Virus record (IMG/VR): IMGVR_UViG_3300046479_000013
Location: 1 to 61,806 of that record
Length of the DNA: 61,806 nucleotides
Source of the DNA: a virus
Lineage: Duplodnaviria > Caudoviricetes
Strand: one strand, 5' to 3'
Part shown: positions 1,902 to 52,118 of the stretch, piece by piece
Layout: each line of letters starts with the position of its first letter
How positions within the stretch are numbered: position 1 is the stretch's first letter
Made by a program: the position numbers and the translations under genes
Notes under the pieces: generated by a model
The model's database searches: none
What the model saw: only the letters and a program-made list of their open reading frames with translations
Told to the model about the DNA's origin: nothing

Positions 1902-3257
1902 ATGGACGTAGTTCGTAAGACAATTCTGAATTTGCTGGCTGAAGGTAACGAGGACATTCGGCGATCAGTGATCAACCAGATCCCCTTTGAGGTCCGAGAC
2001 CTCCTACATAGCTTGCACATGAAGAGCCACAAGAACAATGGCTTCTTCCTGGTCGGTGGCTGCATCCGGGACATGCTCCTGGGTCGCACGCCCAAGGACT
2101 GGGACATGGTGACCACGGAACCCTATGTGGTCAAGGGCCTCTACCCGATGATCGGAAAGGACTTTCCGGTGTGGCAAGTCAAGCTGGTCAATCATGTCGT
2201 GGAACTGGCCTCGGCCCGCACAGAGCGGAAGATCGGAGACGGACATACCGGCTTTGAATGTACCGAGACCAACGACATTAATCAGGACCTGCTCCGGCGG
2301 GACCTCACGATCAACGCCATTGCCTTGAGCGACAGCGGAGATATCTTCTATGCTCCCAATGCGTTGGAAGACCTCAAGGATGGTGTGCTCCGGCATGTCA
2401 CCAAGGCCTTCGCCGAGGATCCTCTGCGAGTGTTCCGGGTGGCCCGGTTCGCGGCCCAGCTGGGTTTCACGGTGCATCCTCACACGACCAGGTTCATGTT
2501 CATGCTGCGTCATGAGCTGAAGACCCTGAGTCCGGATCGAGTCCGGGTGGAACTGGAACGGGCCTTGATGGCTCCCCATCCCAGCCAATTCTTCCGGGTG
2601 CTCAAAGAGGCTCGCTGCTTGGATCACTGGTTCCCCGAAGTGGAGAGCCTGATCGGATCAGAACATAGCCTCAAACATCACCCGGAGGGGGACGCCTTCG
2701 AGCATGTCATGCTGTGCATGGAGACCATGCGCAAGAACCCCTCCTGCACGCTGGATCATATGTTGGCCATCCTGGGCCATGACTTCGGCAAGGGTCTCAC
2801 CGATCCTACGATGTGGCCTAAGCACATAGGTCATGAGCAAGGCGGGATCCCGTTGATCATCAACTTCTGCAACCGTCTGGGCTACGGCAGACAGACGATC
2901 CATCAGATGACCCAGGTGGCTGCCAATCACATGGTGATGCATAAGATCCAAGAACTCCGGCCTAGCACGCTGCGCAAGCTGCTCTTGGACACCCGACGTT
3001 CTGTGTTAGGCATCAAGGGTTTCGGCGATGTGTGTCAGGCTGACCACAATGGTCGGGGTGGTTTTGAGAACTATGAATACAAGAGCACTCAATACCTCCT
3101 GGACGCCATGGAGGCTCTCAAGGCCGTGAAGATCGTTCCGGGTTTGACTCCAACGCAAATTGAACAGACTCAGAACATCACCATGAAAGCCTGGAAGAAC
3201 CAATACCTCAAGGACCCCGAGAACGTACGGGGAACGTGCGTGGAGCACAAACCTTGA
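1902..3257 (+). CDS. cca: multifunctional CCA-adding tRNA nucleotidyltransferase with HD domain
   Basis: LVGGCIRD..DWD, DLLRRDLTINA, EDPLRVFR, HHPEGD, HDFGK motifs. Confidence 0.95.
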   Translation: MDVVRKTILNLLAEGNEDIRRSVINQIPFEVRDLLHSLHMKSHKNNGFFLVGGCIRDMLLGRTPKDWDMVTTEPYVVKGLYPMIGKDFPVWQVKLVNHVVELASARTERKIGDGHTGFECTETNDINQDLLRRDLTINAIALSDSGDIFYAPNALEDLKDGVLRHVTKAFAEDPLRVFRVARFAAQLGFTVHPHTTRFMFMLRHELKTLSPDRVRVELERALMAPHPSQFFRVLKEARCLDHWFPEVESLIGSEHSLKHHPEGDAFEHVMLCMETMRKNPSCTLDHMLAILGHDFGKGLTDPTMWPKHIGHEQGGIPLIINFCNRLGYGRQTIHQMTQVAANHMVMHKIQELRPSTLRKLLLDTRRSVLGIKGFGDVCQADHNGRGGFENYEYKSTQYLLDAMEALKAVKIVPGLTPTQIEQTQNITMKAWKNQYLKDPENVRGTCVEHKP

Positions 3258-18135: not shown

Positions 18136-18564
18136 TTAAAGCTTGGCCTCGTCCTGATAGATCTGGCGTAGATGCATCAGGAGCTTGCCGAGCATATTCT
18201 TCCCCGTCCCATCCATGGTCCCCCAGTAACGATCACCCCAGGTGTTGCCTTCTTCCAGGTGAGCATCTCCGGTTAAGAGAAGATCTTTTCGTAGGTCCTC
18301 GTGCTGGTCAAACTTGGCCTGCAGGACTTCCCACATGATGTCGTCCTTGACTTCATCCCAATCAGAGCGGAGAGTGATCTTACGACCAAGCTTCTTGCTC
18401 AGACCAGCGGTGAGAATCGTGAACTCCTTAGCCCGAGCGGGTTCTTTCTGAGACTGGTATGCAGCCTCGGTGCTCGGAAAGGTCAAGCCAAAGACCGTCA
18501 CGGGAGCTTCATGAAAGTTGCTCAGGAAGCGATAGACGCCACTGAACTCTTTGATGCTGTCCAT
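18136..18564 (-). CDS. NADAR (YbiA-like) family protein
   Basis: FLSNF, TEAAYQSQK, DWDEVKDDIM, KFDQH, WGDRYWG, GKNMLGKLLM. Confidence 0.92.
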   Translation of the reverse strand: MDSIKEFSGVYRFLSNFHEAPVTVFGLTFPSTEAAYQSQKEPARAKEFTILTAGLSKKLGRKITLRSDWDEVKDDIMWEVLQAKFDQHEDLRKDLLLTGDAHLEEGNTWGDRYWGTMDGTGKNMLGKLLMHLRQIYQDEAKL

Positions 18565-22181: not shown

Positions 22182-22258
22182 TGGGGGGAAGGAAGAGATT
22201 CGAACTCTCGCCGAACAGGATCACAGTCAGGCGCTCTAACCATCTGAGCTACGGTTAC
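22182..22258 (-). tRNA. tRNA-His(GTG)-like, chimeric/mispaired (possible pseudogene)
   Basis: Intact D and T arms, GTG loop, C73-CCA; acceptor and anticodon stems do not pair. Confidence 0.55.
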
Positions 22259-29729: not shown

Positions 29730-31301
29730 TTAGCCCTTGGCGAAGGCCGTGACCACAGCCGGGGCCGCAGTGTCGAAGCCGACCACATCGAGCATGCCGC
29801 CGTCACTGGGATCGGCGATGGAGAACTCGGTGGCGGTCATTCCGTAGACGACCAGCTTGGCGGGGATGCCCATGGCATTGCGGTAGGACTTCAGCGCCTG
29901 GAAGGGGTGGATTGCGCCAGCCCAGGTCTCGTTGTCGGTGTAGACCTCGAAGACCTCGACGGGGATCTTGTTCTTCTGGGCCCAGACCATCGGCAGGGAG
30001 CAATCGGTGCCTCCCATGGAGATCCCGGCGATCCGCTTGGTGACGGCGTCGAGGCTCATCTGCTTGGTGAGCGGGATGTCCACGAGCCGAGTGGAGAAGC
30101 CCATGGTGTGATGCTGCTCTTCCACACGCACACGGAGCATCGCCATCGCAGCGGAGGCCTGAGCCGGGGTGAGCGGCAGACCGGCGATGTTGCCCCAGCC
30201 CATGGAGCCGGAGACATCGAGGGCGCTGAGGGTCTTCTTGCCCATCGGTTCGACGGTGCCGAAGGAAAGGTAGAAGGCCTCGTCGAGAGCGGAGACGATC
30301 TTGGGGTTGGCGGACCAGGTGAGACTTCCCTTGTCGCCGTGACCCTGCTCGTAGGTCTTGAGGGCCACGAGGAGGTTGAGCGGATGCAGACGGGCCTTCT
30401 TGATGGCCTCCTGATCACCGAGGAGCTTGGTGATCCGCTGGGTGGCATCGCTCAGAGGGCCGGTGAGACCCAGGGCACTGAGACGACCGAGGTTGCGGAC
30501 CATGGCACCCATGGGGATGTTCTCCATCAGTGCTTCCCAGACCTTGGACTCTTTGAGCCATTCGGTGGGCAGGGCCTCCCAGGGGAGCCGGTTGTCACGC
30601 ACGAGGCTGATGACTTCCTTGGCGCTCTGGGTCTCCTGCAGCCGGATGAAGGCTTCGATCATGGGATGGAGCTGATTCTCCACTTCCTTACCGACGGACC
30701 AGCGGAACATGTCGTTCATCACGCCAGTTGCGGAAGGATGGGCGAGGCGCAGAACGTCCCGGTGGGTCCAGCCGCCACGCTGACGGTACTTGATCAGCTG
30801 CAGGGCCACCTGGTCCTCGGTCTTGTTGGTGTAGAACTTACTCACACCACGACGGAGACCTGCGGACCAGCCGCGCATGGCAACCACGGCGTCGCAGAAC
30901 TGGAAGATGTGAGTCCCGATTCGGCACACCTGGGGGATGGAGGCGTATGCGGCCTTCTTGGTGTTCTCGTCACCGTAGGTGGCGCAGAGGGCGAGGACGA
31001 AGATCGCGGGATCGTTCTTGGGTGCACGACCGGCGTCGGAGACCTGCACGACGAACTGCACCACGGCCTCACCGTTGTGCTTGATCATCTCGATGATGGT
31101 CTTGGCAGCGTCCTGGGTCATCTTGCGTTCCCCGGCGTAGTAGCTGCCCTTCTCGGTTCCCAGGATGAGGAACCTGTTCAACAGCGCCTGGTCGTCGATC
31201 TTGAAGACGAAACCACCAGCGTTGTTCTTGACCTGGCTCTTACCGAAGACCTCTTCCTGCTGAGAAGTGACCTTCTGAGAAACGTGTTCCTGGTAACGCA
31301 T
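29730..31301 (-). CDS. rsr: Ro60/Rsr RNA-binding protein (TROVE + vWA)
   Basis: QVKNNAGGFVF, RFLILG, KYRQRGGWTHRDVLRLAHP, AMVRNLG, LDVSGSM, GGTDCSLPM, TDNETWAG, GMLDVVGFD; AAGGAGG RBS. Confidence 0.96.
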   Translation of the reverse strand: MRYQEHVSQKVTSQQEEVFGKSQVKNNAGGFVFKIDDQALLNRFLILGTEKGSYYAGERKMTQDAAKTIIEMIKHNGEAVVQFVVQVSDAGRAPKNDPAIFVLALCATYGDENTKKAAYASIPQVCRIGTHIFQFCDAVVAMRGWSAGLRRGVSKFYTNKTEDQVALQLIKYRQRGGWTHRDVLRLAHPSATGVMNDMFRWSVGKEVENQLHPMIEAFIRLQETQSAKEVISLVRDNRLPWEALPTEWLKESKVWEALMENIPMGAMVRNLGRLSALGLTGPLSDATQRITKLLGDQEAIKKARLHPLNLLVALKTYEQGHGDKGSLTWSANPKIVSALDEAFYLSFGTVEPMGKKTLSALDVSGSMGWGNIAGLPLTPAQASAAMAMLRVRVEEQHHTMGFSTRLVDIPLTKQMSLDAVTKRIAGISMGGTDCSLPMVWAQKNKIPVEVFEVYTDNETWAGAIHPFQALKSYRNAMGIPAKLVVYGMTATEFSIADPSDGGMLDVVGFDTAAPAVVTAFAKG

Positions 31302-40330: not shown

Positions 40331-40406
40331 TGGTTGGCGCACCAGGGGTCGAACCTGGGACAGATCGGTTATCGGCCGATTCCTCTACCAGCTGAGGTAT
40401 ACGCCA
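40331..40406 (-). tRNA. tRNA-Ile(GAT)
   Basis: Cloverleaf, loop CC-GAT-AA, CCA. Confidence 0.85.
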
Positions 40407-42474: not shown

Positions 42475-42550
42475 TGGTAGCCCCGGTGGAATTCGAATCC
42501 ACGACGCACGGATTTAGAGTCCATCGCTCTGACCACTGAGCTACGGGGCC
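42475..42550 (-). tRNA. amber suppressor tRNA (CTA anticodon)
   Basis: Canonical 76-nt cloverleaf, loop CT-CTA-AA, A73-CCA. Confidence 0.88.
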
Positions 42551-46162: not shown

Positions 46163-46239
46163 TGGCAGTCCCGACGGGACTCGAACCCGCGACCTCCGCA
46201 TAGACAGTGCGGCGCTCTAACCAACTGAGCTACGAAACT
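46163..46239 (-). tRNA. tRNA-Asp(GTC)
   Basis: Cloverleaf, loop CT-GTC-TA, G73-CCA. Confidence 0.88.
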
Positions 46240-47273: not shown

Positions 47274-47286
47274 CTCTTTCTATTAG

Positions 47287-47373
47287 AGCCAAGAGAGGGA
47301 TTTGAACCCTCGACGGAGATTGCTCTCAAGGGATTTGCAGTCCCTACCCTTCGACCACTTGGGACACCTTGGC
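47287..47373 (-). tRNA. tRNA-Cys(GCA) with long variable arm, CCA not encoded
   Basis: Loop CT-GCA-AA, U73, GAGA-GCAA-TCTC variable hairpin, 3' end CTA. Confidence 0.8.
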
Positions 47374-48031: not shown

Positions 48032-48121
48032 TGGCGGAGGGGACAGGATTTGAACCTGCGGGACGCTTGCGCGCCCACCACCTTTCCGAGATGGAGCTAT
48101 CGACCACTCTGCCACCCCTCC
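48032..48121 (-). tRNA. tRNA-Ser(GGA)
   Basis: Long variable arm, loop TC-GGA-AA, G73-CCA. Confidence 0.88.
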
Positions 48122-49639: not shown

Positions 49640-49714
49640 TGGTGACCCCGGAGAATTTCGAAATCTCGACCGGATGCGTGTAAAGCATCTGCTCTGCCTC
49701 TGAGCTACGGTGCC
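49640..49714 (-). tRNA. tRNA-Val(TAC)
   Basis: Cloverleaf, loop TT-TAC-AC, CCA. Confidence 0.87.
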
Positions 49715-49731
49715 AATATTTATTATATGAA

Positions 49732-49916
49732 TTTGTCTTGATAAAAGGTCGGCGTCCCAGATAGTATATTTAACGGCGCGGCTACCAGACTTCGCCACCC
49801 CTCGATGAAGTCGAGGGAGGAGGATTTGAACCTCCGACAGAGCAGGGTATATACAAGGCCCATTGCTCCAACCGTGCCCCAAGCAGGATAAGGGACATCC
49901 AGTCGACCAAGACAAA
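49732..49916 (-). ncRNA. Y-RNA-like element 5 with circularly permuted tRNA domain
   Basis: TTTGTCTTG-GTCGA..GTCCC-TTATC...T arm, TCCCTCGA-CTTCA-TCGAGGGG, D arm...GGGAC..TTAT-CAAGACAAA. Confidence 0.75.
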
Positions 49917-49923
49917 ACTGTTT

Positions 49924-49994
49924 CTCAAAGATAAGGGAACTCCAAGACGGAGGCATCATTAACAGGATAACCGTCAGCGGAAACGACCTTTGAG
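49924..49994 (-). ncRNA. Y-RNA-like element 6 (minimal)
   Basis: CTCAAAG-GTCG..GACGG-TTATC-CTGTTAA..CCGTC..TTAT-CTTTGAG. Confidence 0.7.
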
Positions 49995-49998
49995 TGAT

Positions 49999-50073
49999 TG
50001 GTGCAGGGGGAAGGATTTGAACCCTCGATTCCAGGACTTGTACCCGAAGCTTTGAACACTAAGCTACCCCTGC
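49999..50073 (-). ncRNA. tRNA-like RNA, non-canonical anticodon loop (TACAAGT)
   Basis: Perfect acceptor, D and T arms, ACCA; lacks U33. Confidence 0.65.
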
Positions 50074-50082
50074 TAGATAAAA

Positions 50083-50173
50083 TGGTGGGTAGGGATGGAT
50101 TCGAACCACCGACTACCAGGGTTTTACGCCTGGCGCTCTCAAGTCCTTGCGGAACCAACTGAGCTACCTCCCC
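50083..50173 (-). ncRNA. tRNA-like RNA with hairpin inserted in D loop and 8-nt anticodon-position loop
   Basis: TCC-GCAA-GGA in D loop; CCAGG-CGTAAAAC-CCTGG; ACCA. Confidence 0.65.
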
Positions 50174-50177
50174 AGAG

Positions 50178-50290
50178 TGACCCTGCCTTGATACTCGCTC
50201 TTTGGACCCGGCTGCGTGCAATAGCGGTTTCCACTGCGGGTATCCACTCCAACCTTATGCGTCTGTTATAGAGACAAGGTTACAGGGTCG
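50178..50290 (-). ncRNA. candidate rod-shaped RNA with large central bubble
   Basis: GACCCTG/CAGGGTC and CCTTG/CAAGG closing stems, TGGA/TCCA and CCCG/CGGG distal stems. Confidence 0.35.
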
Positions 50291-50294
50291 TGAT

Positions 50295-50372
50295 TGGTTG
50301 GGAGGGAAGGATTTGAACCCCCGACCTCTTAGGCTTGCGGCCTAGGTGCTCTGAACACTGAGCTACCTCCCA
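50295..50372 (-). ncRNA. tRNA-like RNA, anticodon arm replaced by longer stem with CGCAA loop
   Basis: TGGGAGG/CCTCCCA acceptor, TAGGC-CGCAA-GCCTA, ACCA. Confidence 0.65.
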
Positions 50373-50377
50373 ATTGA

Positions 50378-50793
50378 TGGTGGACCTGGAGGGAATCGAA
50401 CCCTCGTCCAAGAAGACTGACCTTGATAGGAATTACACGCTTCCTTGACCTTAGACCTCCTGGAGCCGGTGGTCAAGGAACCACTCCGGAGGGATCTGCG
50501 TTCGTCACCATTCGGGCCGCAACCCCTGTGATGGTCTATTCTCTAGCACAGAATCGGTAGGATTGCTCCACCCTATCTATGTTCGGAGTCAAGCGAGACT
50601 CATGACTCCTATCCTGCTTACGCTACTAGAGCGAGTTCGGAACCGGCGCGGACGCTGGAACCAATGAAGCGGGAGAGGGAACTAGCAACAAAGTTGGCAG
50701 TTTTGTTTCACATGATTATTAAAGTCGGCCATCATGCTTCCGCTGCGTGCCTATACAAGACCTAAATCAACCTGTCGAAACCGGGTCAGGCCC
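50378..50793 (-). ncRNA. ssrA: tmRNA
   Basis: 5' GGGCCTGACCCGGTTTCGAC, 3' GGACGAGGGTTCGATTCCCTCCAGGTCCACCA, G3:U70; tag ORF 50698-50618 ANFVASSLSRFIGSSVRAGSELALVA*. Confidence 0.92.
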
Positions 50794-50827
50794 CTTTGAA
50801 CTTCCTCGAACTAAGTAAGAGGAAGAA

Positions 50828-51568
50828 ATGACATATTACCTATTGTATAAGACAACATGCCAGATTACTGGAAAATTCTACTGCGGAATGCACAAGACAG
50901 AAGAACTGGAAGATGGATATCTCGGATCAGGAAAACGCCTCCGGGCTTCAGTTGCAAAGTATGGAAAGGAGAACTTCACCCGAGAGCTTATTTCTACCCA
51001 CGATAGCCAAGAAACTCTTTCCAAGGCTGAAGAGGAATTGATCACCCCCGAGATGCTATCTAACCCCATGTGTCTGAATCTTGTTCCAGGCGGGAAAGGA
51101 GGCTCAGGACCAGGGAAGCTTGGTGCTTCACTTGGGGGTCAAGCCTATGCTAAGGCGCTTGAGGAGAACTCTGCATTCAGAGAAGTTAAGATACCCCAAC
51201 TCTGTGCTGCCGGGAAGCTTGGAGGAGCCTTGGGAAGCAACCTTCAAATTGGAGAAAGGGGAAAGATTTCTGCTCAAACTCCAGAGGCCAGATCCAAGAG
51301 AATCTCTACCATGAGAGAACGGGGTCACCAGAAAGGTGCGAAGAACAGTCAGTCTGGAACCACGTGTATCTATCACCCAGAGCACGGAAACAAGAGGATA
51401 CCTCAACAAGAAATAGATTCCTGGATCACTCAAGGATGGTTACCCGGAGCTAATATTGGAACCTGTTTCATTCATCATCCTGAAGCGTTGAAGGGGAAAC
51501 TCATTCCCAAAGGAGACCTGGATTCTTGGACCGATCAAGGTTGGATCCCTGGAATGAAACCCAGATAG
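50828..51568 (+). CDS. GIY-YIG (Seg-like) homing endonuclease
   Basis: LLYKTTCQITGKFYCGMH...DGYLGSG...YGKENF...NLVPGG; two C-terminal xxxGW.PG repeats. Confidence 0.88.
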   Translation: MTYYLLYKTTCQITGKFYCGMHKTEELEDGYLGSGKRLRASVAKYGKENFTRELISTHDSQETLSKAEEELITPEMLSNPMCLNLVPGGKGGSGPGKLGASLGGQAYAKALEENSAFREVKIPQLCAAGKLGGALGSNLQIGERGKISAQTPEARSKRISTMRERGHQKGAKNSQSGTTCIYHPEHGNKRIPQQEIDSWITQGWLPGANIGTCFIHHPEALKGKLIPKGDLDSWTDQGWIPGMKPR

Positions 51569-51737
51569 CGCCGATTCTTGTCTTCGCCGCAAGCGTCTAG
51601 GACAATCTAATTGATAGACTACAGCGATCTACATCGGGAGATCAATCGTGCAGCCAGAGGGGGACAAGGGCTGTCCCACCGCCTCCACCATCTGGTCATA
51701 GGGGCCAGAACCATCCTCTCAAGGAGTGATTGGATAG

Positions 51738-51856
51738 TTTCTCAGATTAAAACGGGGTTGGGGTTTACGCGCTCTATCCACTAAGCTACATGGTGGGATT
51801 CGAACCCACGCCTCGCTGTTCGTAGCAGTTAACCAACACACCAACGACCTGAGGAA
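51738..51856 (-). ncRNA. Y-RNA-like element 7 (T arm joined to D arm, acceptor stem deleted)
   Basis: CTCAG-GTCG..GGTTAAC..GTGGG-TTCGAAT-CCCAC-CATG-TAGCTTAGTGGATAGAGC..TAAT-CTGAG. Confidence 0.7.
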
Positions 51857-51861
51857 TAGTT

Positions 51862-51997
51862 TCTCTGATGAAAACCGGAATGGAATTTTACGCGCTCTAC
51901 CAGACTGAGCTATACGAGGAAGAGATGCCCTCGCAGATGGATTTGAACCACCGACCACGCTCTTAACAGGAGATAATCCATTACCAACGACCAGAGA
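51862..51997 (-). ncRNA. Y-RNA-like element 8 with circularly permuted tRNA domain
   Basis: TCTCTG-GTCG..AATGGA-TTATC..T arm, TGCGAGGG/TCCTCGTA closed acceptor, D arm..TCCATT..TCAT-CAGAGA. Confidence 0.75.
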
Positions 51998-52031
51998 TAT
52001 TATTGTCACCGCACCAGGTGAACTAGATAAG

Positions 52032-52118
52032 TGGGGAGGGATGGATTCGAACCACCGACCTCTAAGGATTTGACCCCTTAGTGCTCTGCGCCCGAAGGCC
52101 CAACTGAGCTACCTCCCC
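52032..52118 (-). ncRNA. tRNA-like RNA with hairpin inserted in D loop, paralog of 50083..50173
   Basis: GGGGAGG/CCTCCCC, GCC-TTCG-GGC insert, CTAAGG-GGTCAAAT-CCTTAG; CCA not encoded. Confidence 0.65.

Follow-up and report, generated by a model that had tools for sequence, protein, structure and literature searches.

Four tRNA look-alikes with atypical anticodon loops in a tRNA-rich phage: possible non-decoding mimics of the tRNA body

Phage tRNA genes are now viewed as weapons against host immunity that cuts tRNAs, and the published cases are working tRNAs with subtle changes. In the sections of van den Berg et al. (2023; PMC10264068) and of the PARIS study (PMC12409363) that treat nuclease-escaping phage tRNAs, the latter concerning T5 tRNA-Lys, tRNA-Thr and tRNA-Asn set against AriB, these tRNAs have altered anticodon arms, belong to tRNA-rich phages with RNA-repair genes and are changed where nucleases read or cut, but they keep a canonical 7-nucleotide (nt) anticodon loop with the correct anticodon and decode. 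Here we describe four tRNA look-alike genes, TL1–TL4, in the IMG/VR virus record IMGVR_UViG_3300046479_000013 (61,806 bp; classed as linear, completeness estimate 35%), the whole of which was analyzed and is called the window below. TL1–TL4 resemble the nuclease-escaping tRNAs in their altered anticodon arms and in their phage surroundings, but TL2 and TL4 have 8-nt loops, and U33 is present in none of the four. They are tentatively read here as tRNA-body mimics that would not decode and probably serve as decoys in a tRNA-centred conflict between phage and host, and the locus may thus show a further step, in which tRNA bodies stay under selection after the decoding loop has been given up.

By analogy, the nearest published counterparts may be the irregular or allo-tRNAs found in bacteria of soil and peat (Mukai et al. 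2017; PMC5389517), some of which, according to the parts of that paper on their function, are charged in vitro yet unused in translation, with regulatory or toxin-antitoxin-linked roles under discussion. Like the TL genes, they are irregular tRNA genes in polycistronic arrangements from forest or peat soil, and the window DNA recurs in peat metagenomes. Within the same parts of the paper, however, these tRNAs have an 8/4 or 9/3 acceptor/T geometry, long variable arms or an extra loop, whereas TL1–TL4 have the standard 7/5 geometry and are phage-borne. The 8-nt anticodon loop of TL2 and TL4 in an otherwise normal cloverleaf has a parallel in yeast mitochondrial tRNA-Thr1, which the sections of Su et al. 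(2011; PMC3113583) on this tRNA establish as a triplet decoder, whereas decoding by TL2 and TL4 would be hypothetical. The YrlA/Yrn1 Y RNAs (Rfam RF02553), as characterized in parts of Chen et al. (2014; PMC4201824), are like the TL genes in being tRNA-derived and, as the TL genes are read here, non-decoding, in retaining D and T arms together with the tertiary positions of tRNA, and in occurring in rsr-carrying phages.

The TL genes are listed below with their matches to the Rfam tRNA model (RF00005; gathering score 29 bits), which had E-values of 6e-8 to 4e-7 when the whole window was searched, and with fold z-scores calculated from shuffled sequences.

49999–50073, minus strand: TL1, tRNA look-alike of 75 nt; Rfam tRNA 50.7 bits (50002–50073); cloverleaf as minimum free energy (MFE) structure, z −2.6
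50083–50173, minus strand: TL2, tRNA look-alike of 91 nt; Rfam tRNA 47.9 bits (50086–50173); cloverleaf MFE, z −1.1
50295–50372, minus strand: TL3, tRNA look-alike of 78 nt; Rfam tRNA 50.7 bits (50298–50372); cloverleaf MFE, z −2.1
52031–52118, minus strand: TL4, tRNA look-alike of 88 nt; Rfam tRNA 48.7 bits (52032–52118); cloverleaf MFE, z −3.4, with 0 of 200 shuffles equally stable

Thus, the four look-alikes announced in a preliminary description of this DNA are present where it had placed them. By both the Rfam match and the MFE fold, each is a canonical cloverleaf: the acceptor stem has 7 bp, D, anticodon and T arms are present, and the discriminator base is A73 in all four. The core positions U8, A14, G15, A21 and C48 and the T-loop UUCRAAU are also kept in all of them. 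CCA is encoded by TL1, TL2 and TL3, as had been noted before, and the 3′ end of TL4 reads CAC-UUA, without CCA; the acceptor stem of TL2 contains one mismatch, G4.A69. A plus-strand reading of these genes was ruled out, because the T loop, D loop and CCA fit the minus strand alone.

The anticodon loops depart from the canonical pattern in different ways. TL1 has a 7-nt loop, UACAAGU, with A33; TL2 has an 8-nt loop, CGUAAAAC; TL3 has a 7-nt loop, CCGCAAG, with C33; and TL4 has an 8-nt loop, GGUCAAAU, which shortens to 6 nt with the G.U pair closed. The earlier assignment of a CGCAA loop to TL3 holds for the MFE fold, in which a C-G pair closes a 5-nt loop, and gives way to the 7-nt loop if that pair opens. 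As the preliminary description had stated, none of the four fits YUNNNRN: a 7-nt loop with U33 and a purine at 37 is absent from TL1–TL4 and present in 24 of the 27 other tRNAs that ARAGORN reports in the window. Among those 27, U33 occurs in 25 and its combination with R37 in 24; tRNA-Asp (46163–46239, minus strand) carries U37. Because their anticodon loops fail this comparison, TL1–TL4 are not canonical tRNAs.

Routine annotation would hide this oddity, because ARAGORN labels three of the genes as ordinary Leu or Cys tRNAs. It called 30 tRNA genes in the window, every one on the minus strand, and Rfam gave 31 tRNA matches over the gathering score plus one full-length transfer-messenger RNA (tmRNA). 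The ARAGORN check proposed beforehand therefore had a mixed outcome: TL1 was reported as Leu-CAA, TL3 as Cys-GCA and TL4 as Leu-CAG, the last label arising from a D-loop hairpin mistaken for the anticodon arm, and TL2 was missed. Genes of this kind are probably under-counted, given such standard labels.

The D and T arms divide the four genes into two types, as had been observed at the outset. In TL1 and TL3, the D loop is AGUGUUCA and the T arm is G[AG]GGG-UUCAAAU-CCUUC. Their D loop differs from the ordinary AGUGGUCA of the phage's own CUA tRNA by the single change G19 to U, so that G18 is retained next to U19; TL2 and TL4 have the G18-G19 of the elbow. TL2 and TL4 are identical over their first 19 nt and share the T arm GGUGG-UUCGAAU-CCAUC. 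Each carries a mini-hairpin inserted at the same D-loop site, and the GCAA and TTCG tetraloops quoted earlier fold as described: UCC-GCAA-GGA in TL2 and GCC-UUCG-GGC in TL4, with different stems and different stable tetraloops. Introns were rejected as an origin of these inserts, whose length falls short of a group I intron, and the D-loop introns of archaeal type met in a scan of cellular genomes (described below) belonged to archaeal metagenome-assembled genomes.

Maintenance of the stems was then compared by manual segmentation over 21 pairs per comparison; MAFFT alignments misplaced the inserts and were not used.

TL1 versus TL3: 12 pairs the same, 2 changed on one side and still paired, 6 compensatory, 1 unpaired in one member
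TL2 versus TL4: 18 the same, 0 changed on one side and still paired, 2 compensatory, 1 unpaired in one member (G4.A69 in TL2)
TL3 versus TL4: 17 the same, 0 changed on one side and still paired, 3 compensatory, 1 unpaired in one member

On the strength of these comparisons and of the oddities held in common, TL1–TL4 are, judged by their sequences, paralogs of one tRNA-derived gene family. The oddities are specific to each pair, namely G19U in TL1 and TL3, and the D hairpin with an 8-nt loop of the form N-G-U-N-A-A-A-Y in TL2 and TL4. Since they are common within each pair, they are most simply older than the divergence of its members, and the compensatory changes are read as later. The 3′ flanks also repeat by type, with UUAUCUAG after TL2 and TL4 and AUCAC after TL1 and TL3, which suggests that a two-gene unit comprising one hairpin-type and one G19U-type gene was duplicated and that both copies of both types were retained.

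These compensatory changes argue against simple or recent decay, which bears on whether TL1–TL4 might be tRNA pseudogenes, that is, neutral, recently disabled duplicates that have not yet decayed. In favour of this, duplication and rearrangement are frequent in tRNA arrays riddled with homing endonucleases, a degenerate tRNA-like remnant that lacks an acceptor stem occurs at 22192–22252, TL2 has its acceptor mismatch and TL4 lacks CCA. Yet a pseudogene is marked by stem breaks and loss of the core, and what was found here is at most one non-pair in 21 and two to six compensatory changes per comparison, acquired after derived oddities that the genes share. In addition, all four copies are retained, different and equally stable tetraloop hairpins occupy one D-loop site, and a homolog exists in another contig (L035, below). 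We regard the pseudogene explanation as highly improbable, and the earlier statement that the stems are maintained rather than simply decaying is borne out.

To place the two types among other sequences, IMG/VR was scanned with a type-I tRNA pattern carrying a 9- to 22-nt D-loop insert, which returned 19 loci. Eleven of these (9 distinct sequences) are tRNA-Lys(UUU) genes with an invariant CUUUUAA anticodon loop and a 2- to 4-bp capped hairpin between G19 and A21.

IMG/VR loci L013, L014, L015, L019, L020, L022, L023, L025, L026, L029 and L031: D-loop-hairpin tRNA-Lys(UUU)

Several of the phages with a hairpin tRNA-Lys also have an ordinary tRNA-Lys(UUU). A twelfth locus, L016, combines a D hairpin and CCA with a 12-nt anticodon loop, and the remaining 7 are other insertions or duplications. 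When the 9 Lys sequences, L016, TL2 and TL4 were folded, all 12 distinct sequences formed a 2- to 4-bp capped D hairpin, with 9 different stem/loop sequences; the insert of L026 is nearly identical to that of TL2. The hairpin tRNA-Lys genes thus resemble TL2 and TL4 in a tetraloop hairpin of 2–4 bp between G19 and A21 and in A73, and differ from them in the anticodon loop, which is CUUUUAA in 11 of 11 Lys loci and 8–12 nt long in TL2, TL4 and L016. A scan with the same D-insert pattern of 185,579 prokaryote species, each represented by a single genome, gave 50 loci, which by inspection were scaffolding or duplication artefacts and archaeal D-loop introns; hairpin tRNA-Lys genes were not among the 50. 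As far as a single exact pattern can reach, the D-loop hairpin therefore looks phage-specific. Our literature search found no paper on D-loop-hairpin phage tRNAs, expanded-loop phage tRNAs, or tRNA-like decoys or sponges, although the supplementary tables to Chen et al. (2014) and to van den Berg et al. (2023) could include phage RNAs of relevance; the D-loop-hairpin tRNA-Lys family appears to be undescribed.

Closer relatives of the TL genes came from a metagenome scan that yielded 15 loci. One of them, L035:578–666 on a 177-kb contig, shares the acceptor stem of TL4 (7 of 7 pairs), A73, CCA and the TL4 T arm. In place of an ordinary anticodon arm it has a long, irregular hairpin capped by 4 nt; because this hairpin replaces the anticodon loop, the L035 member cannot decode, and as a sequence homolog it favours a non-decoding role for the TL family. 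Another locus, L042, is an odd tRNA-like gene with the TL2/TL4 T arm, and a full-length, sub-threshold YrlA match (32 bits) lies 2.4 kb from it. An IMG/VR scan for the shared acceptor strand (GGGGAGG) together with the T arm returned 2 loci, both ordinary tRNA-Phe(GAA), and exact-pattern IMG/VR scans for TL2/TL4-type and TL1/TL3-type genes returned 0 loci each, the window's own record possibly being left out of them. Loci recovered through protein anchors, one with Rsr (51% identity) and three with NAMPT (36–40%), held no TL-like gene.

Taken as non-decoding mimics of the tRNA body, TL1–TL4 would be explained as follows. Selection would maintain the acceptor stem of 7 bp and its A73, the stems of the D, anticodon and T arms and the tertiary positions of the core, but not a standard decoding loop. 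Proteins that recognise tRNA by its shape, such as nucleases, toxins or sensors of the host that target tRNAs, would then meet an intact tRNA-shaped substrate, possibly ending in CCA, and the RNAs would act as decoys or inhibitors in competition with real tRNAs. Surfaces that such proteins read would be altered in both subtypes, by the D-loop hairpin in one and by G19 to U in the other, affecting the D loop and the elbow. We favour this reading, although we give it somewhat less than an even chance, because a conserved body is joined to a free or rod-like anticodon arm, in contrast to the invariant loop of the decoding hairpin tRNAs, and because of the genomic company of tmRNA, Y-like RNAs, rsr, a CCA-adding enzyme, NAD salvage and a NADAR protein that is set out below. 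The PARIS study adds that AriB contacts the anticodon stem as well as the D loop, and its authors raise viral tRNAs as possible nuclease inhibitors, in the portion of the paper concerned (PMC12409363). If the decoy or inhibitor role is true, the TL RNAs would be RNA-based anti-defence factors against tRNA-targeting systems. The recurrence of the D-loop mini-hairpin in phage tRNA-Lys(UUU) genes and its absence from the cellular-genome hits point to the D loop and elbow as a surface read by some host factor.

Several observations weigh against the decoy interpretation. TL1 is one substitution (U33A) off a canonical CAA loop, TL3 reads C33-GCA, and all four loops contain CAA or AAA, which may be the remnant of an anticodon or a working one. 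C33 also occurs in the otherwise ordinary tRNA-Ile(GAU) (40331–40406, minus strand) and tRNA-Ser(GGA) (48032–48121, minus strand), so a deviation at position 33 is not peculiar to TL1–TL4, and in yeast mitochondria an 8-nt anticodon loop decodes triplets, according to the relevant sections of PMC3113583. The compensatory changes could partly date from ordinary-tRNA ancestors, and L035 is tied to the family only by identity in its acceptor and T arms. Any conservation of the odd loops between strains is a presumption: no close relative of the phage occurs among 50,697 deposited phages, and the only second sample with window DNA has the identical sequence and hence zero variants. Finally, a TL-like gene is absent from the 24-kb tRNA/Rsr region of Microbacterium phage Pumpernickel, the one cultured Rsr phage region examined, which holds a YrlA-like RNA, RtcB and a peptidyl-tRNA hydrolase, and no host defence system is known for the window phage. 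The preliminary proposal of tRNA mimics with a non-ribosomal role therefore stands in part: the maintained bodies and the L035 member without an anticodon loop agree with it, whereas the C33 tRNAs and decoding 8-nt loops leave the term "non-decoding" an inference.

Many of the same facts suit unorthodox decoders, whose loops and D loops would have been remodelled against host anticodon nucleases while codons are still read (CAA in TL1 and TL4, AAA in TL2, GCA in TL3). Escape from nucleases through anticodon-loop changes has been proposed for phage tRNAs, and T5 tRNA-Lys evades AriB through two stem substitutions, as reported in parts of PMC10264068 and PMC12409363, respectively. Within the window, besides the C33 tRNAs and the single base separating TL1 from a canonical CAA loop, U-NNN-A is readable in TL2 and TL4 if one extra base 5′ of the U is allowed, three of the four genes encode CCA and all have A73. 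The D hairpin is itself compatible with decoding, since it coexists with a canonical Lys loop at the 11 IMG/VR loci. On the other hand, the putative anticodon sits at differing loop positions among TL1–TL4; the bodies of TL2 and TL4 are near-identical, yet they would serve Phe and Leu codons; G19U weakens the elbow of TL1 and TL3; and in the L035 homolog an anticodon loop is missing altogether. Cys tRNA identity in Escherichia coli uses U73, whereas TL3 has A73, and a separate GCA tRNA with U73 lies at 47286–47373. Decoding by TL1–TL4 is therefore considered unlikely, but it is an alternative that deserves serious weight.

A further reading of the loops as "anti-anticodons" would have them kiss the anticodon loops of U34-containing tRNAs, either shielding these from anticodon nucleases or titrating host tRNAs. 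Each TL loop contains Y-NNA-A (U-ACA-A, U-AAA-A, C-GCA-A and U-CAA-A), and these motifs are exact complements of U33-UNN-R37 in Thr-UGU, Lys-UUU, Ala-UGC and Gln-UUG, respectively, with 5–6 contiguous pairs; the pertinent section of PMC12409363 gives Lys-UUU and Thr-UGU as the chief targets of AriB. However, the pattern was noticed post hoc, and the rough chance that all four loops complement some canonical loop, about 2%, is inflated by A-rich loops. We consider such kissing very doubtful.

TL1–TL4 all lie inside 49999–52118, in a block of about 2.4 kb composed of tRNA mimics, and the 27 other tRNAs lie outside it, at 17.2–22.5 kb and 39.7–49.7 kb. Paralogs arise in tandem, so the clustering does not count as separate evidence for a common function. 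The order on the minus strand is TL4, Y-like A, Y-like B, a GIY-YIG gene on the opposite strand, tmRNA, TL3, a 111-nt spacer, TL2, TL1, Y-like C and tRNA-Val.

51862–51996, minus strand: Y-RNA-like A, of YrlA type; Rfam YrlA 31.5 bits, E 3e-4, under the gathering score of 69; folds
51741–51853, minus strand: Y-RNA-like B; Rfam YrlA 21.8 bits, E 0.21, under the gathering score of 69; identified by fold, with a weak thermodynamic signal (z −0.3)
50828–51568, plus strand: GIY-YIG homing-endonuclease-like open reading frame (ORF) that splits the RNA block; PHROG 314, 106 bits, and a weak Pfam SegE_GIY-YIG match
50378–50793, minus strand: tmRNA gene; Rfam RF00023, 97.1 bits, full length; 3′ end 5 nt upstream of TL3
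50179–50289, minus strand: structured 111-nt spacer between TL3 and TL2 with a long terminal stem; MFE −38 kcal/mol, z −2.5, 4 of 200 shuffles equally stable; no Rfam match at E<=1
about 49731–49917, minus strand, ends approximate: Y-RNA-like C; recognized by architecture and fold of 49715–49998 only

The TL genes are probably transcribed together with the neighbouring tRNA mimics. Of 11 sequencing runs listed, 4 were compared with the window, all as contigs. Contigs identical to parts of the tmRNA (about 150–307 nt each) occurred in three metatranscriptome-labelled runs from three studies, in which DNA carry-over is possible, and one RNA-library contig matched the GIY-YIG ORF. Over TL1–TL4, the matches were limited to pieces of 33–36 nt with 3–5 differences that continue into unrelated sequence; they are uninformative on expression and are best read as tRNAs of other organisms.

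This arrangement raises the alternative that the TL units are processing punctuation, acting as RNase P/RNase Z cleavage signals that free the tmRNA, Y RNAs and spacer RNA, with selection on the acceptor/T body alone. Each non-tRNA RNA indeed has a TL gene or a tRNA at its flank, TL4 preceding Y-like A and B, the tmRNA lying 5 nt from TL3, the spacer between TL3 and TL2, and Y-like C between TL1 and tRNA-Val; moreover, the minus strand at 49.6–52.2 kb has no sigma-70-like promoter or terminator except a weak site at 50862–50829. That latter result carries little force, however, since a promoter and terminator scan of 47.0–53.2 kb found sites no more numerous than in shuffled sequences. Ordinary tRNAs could serve equally well as cleavage signals, the compensatory maintenance of anticodon stems and D hairpins is unneeded by such a signal, and two Y-like RNAs beside the rsr gene of a relative, L004, have no tRNA-like neighbours (ARAGORN, 0 genes in L004). 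Punctuation thus seems an improbable explanation.

The three Y-like RNAs share a GGUCG motif at the 5′ side of the terminal stem. In the predicted fold of Y-like A, a terminal stem (5′ strand GGUCGUUGG) is followed by a T arm, a capped acceptor hairpin and a D arm, and its T arm is one loop base apart from that of TL2 and TL4. Y-like B has the same 5′ motif, GGUCGUUGG, and passes from the T arm straight into the D arm without an acceptor hairpin. The fold of Y-like C has a terminal stem of considerable length (5′ GGUCGACUGG), followed by a T arm, an acceptor hairpin of 7–8 bp with a cap, and a D arm; Y-like C has no Rfam YrlA match at E<=1 and is identified by fold alone. The Ro60 gene itself belongs to the same contig and lies about 18.7 kb away from the Y-like RNAs and TL genes.

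29730–31301, minus strand: rsr, Ro60/TROVE RNA-binding protein of 523 amino acids; Pfam vWA_Ro60 217 bits and TROVE 154 bits; PHROG 850

A TROVE match was also obtained in the window's own record. In L004, recovered via Rsr at 51% identity, the two similar Y-like RNAs lie directly upstream of rsr, matching the arrangement published in the corresponding section of PMC4201824.

The preliminary description had named Ro60 partnership among possible roles, and TL1–TL4 could in principle be ligands of the Ro60/Rsr particle, either as substrates threaded into the ring or as extra Y-RNA-like regulators. The rsr gene and the three YrlA-type genes interleaved with the TL genes, the shared T arm of Y-like A, and the YrlA-like RNA 2.4 kb from L042 suit this idea, and so does Yrn1 of Deinococcus radiodurans, whose tRNA-like domain has the normal tRNA order and a 6-nt "anticodon" loop; the same parts of PMC4201824 report cutting by RNase P and the adding of CCA for the YrlA of Mycobacterium smegmatis. 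But unlike YrlA, TL1–TL4 have a plain 7-bp acceptor stem with A73, no Ro60-binding helix, an unpermuted order and a 7- to 8-nt loop closing the anticodon arm. They lack the terminal helix bearing the GGUCG motif, do not have the permuted succession of T arm, capped acceptor hairpin and D arm, and are overlapped by no RF02553 match at E<=1. Because the terminal-helix, order and Rfam tests all fail, TL1–TL4 are, by these structural and search comparisons, not Y RNAs. Furthermore, rsr is distant, and TROVE was found, weakly, in 1 of the 18 IMG/VR records with hairpin or insertion tRNAs, so that 17 of 18 phage records hold such tRNAs without it and the D-loop hairpin is not tied to Ro60. Of the Ro60 suggestion, the presence of rsr and of YrlA-type neighbours stood, whereas a direct part for TL1–TL4 in the particle did not gain support and appears extremely unlikely.

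Beyond the RNA block, the company that argues for tRNA-body mimics includes genes of RNA repair and NAD metabolism.

1902–3257, plus strand: tRNA nucleotidyltransferase of the CCA-adding type, 451 amino acids; Pfam PolyA_pol head and RNA-binding domains; PHROG 2244, 307 bits
54238–56764, minus strand: NAD-salvage pair of NAMPT and an NMNAT-Nudix fusion
18136–18564, minus strand: NADAR-domain protein

The set of rsr, tRNA nucleotidyltransferase, NADAR, NAMPT and NMNAT-Nudix is presented as RNA-repair and counter-defence equipment of jumbo phages in the relevant part of Iyer et al. (2021; PMC7824862). The NAMPT/NMNAT-Nudix pair and the NADAR protein are counter-defence metabolism of a kind typical in large phages. 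Other window proteins with Pfam or PHROG matches are RIIA/RIIB-like proteins, tail-fibre-like giants, a UvrD-type helicase, a QueC-like protein and numerous HNH and GIY-YIG homing endonucleases.

An actinobacterial host is possible for this phage, because homologs of its Rsr (38–46% identity, in 368 phage records) come predominantly from actinophages and because one tRNA T arm is shared with an actinophage: that of tRNA-Val(UAC) (49640–49714, minus strand), an unusual GAGAU-UUCGAAA-UUCUC, is the T arm of tRNA-Lys(UUU) of phage Pumpernickel (L099:12207–12281).

Other tRNA genes with unusual features were also recorded. A tRNA with a CUA anticodon, of amber-suppressor type, lies at 42475–42550 on the minus strand; the long ORFs of the window are open under code 11, and recoding is not evident. 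The GCA-anticodon tRNA at 47286–47373 (minus strand, 88 nt) has U73 and a long variable arm and does not encode CCA, making it an unusual class-II-shaped "Cys" tRNA. In the metagenome contigs L036/L046, L038/L044 and L041/L043, tRNA genes carry insertions of 12–20 nt that lie within the anticodon loop or immediately 3′ of it, the loop being canonical otherwise; one of these genes has a UUA anticodon (ochre type). Finally, the partial tRNA match at 22192–22252 (minus strand; model positions 7–64, 31.4 bits) retains D and T arms without an acceptor stem, its anticodon arm is poorly paired, and it may be a remnant or another mimic.

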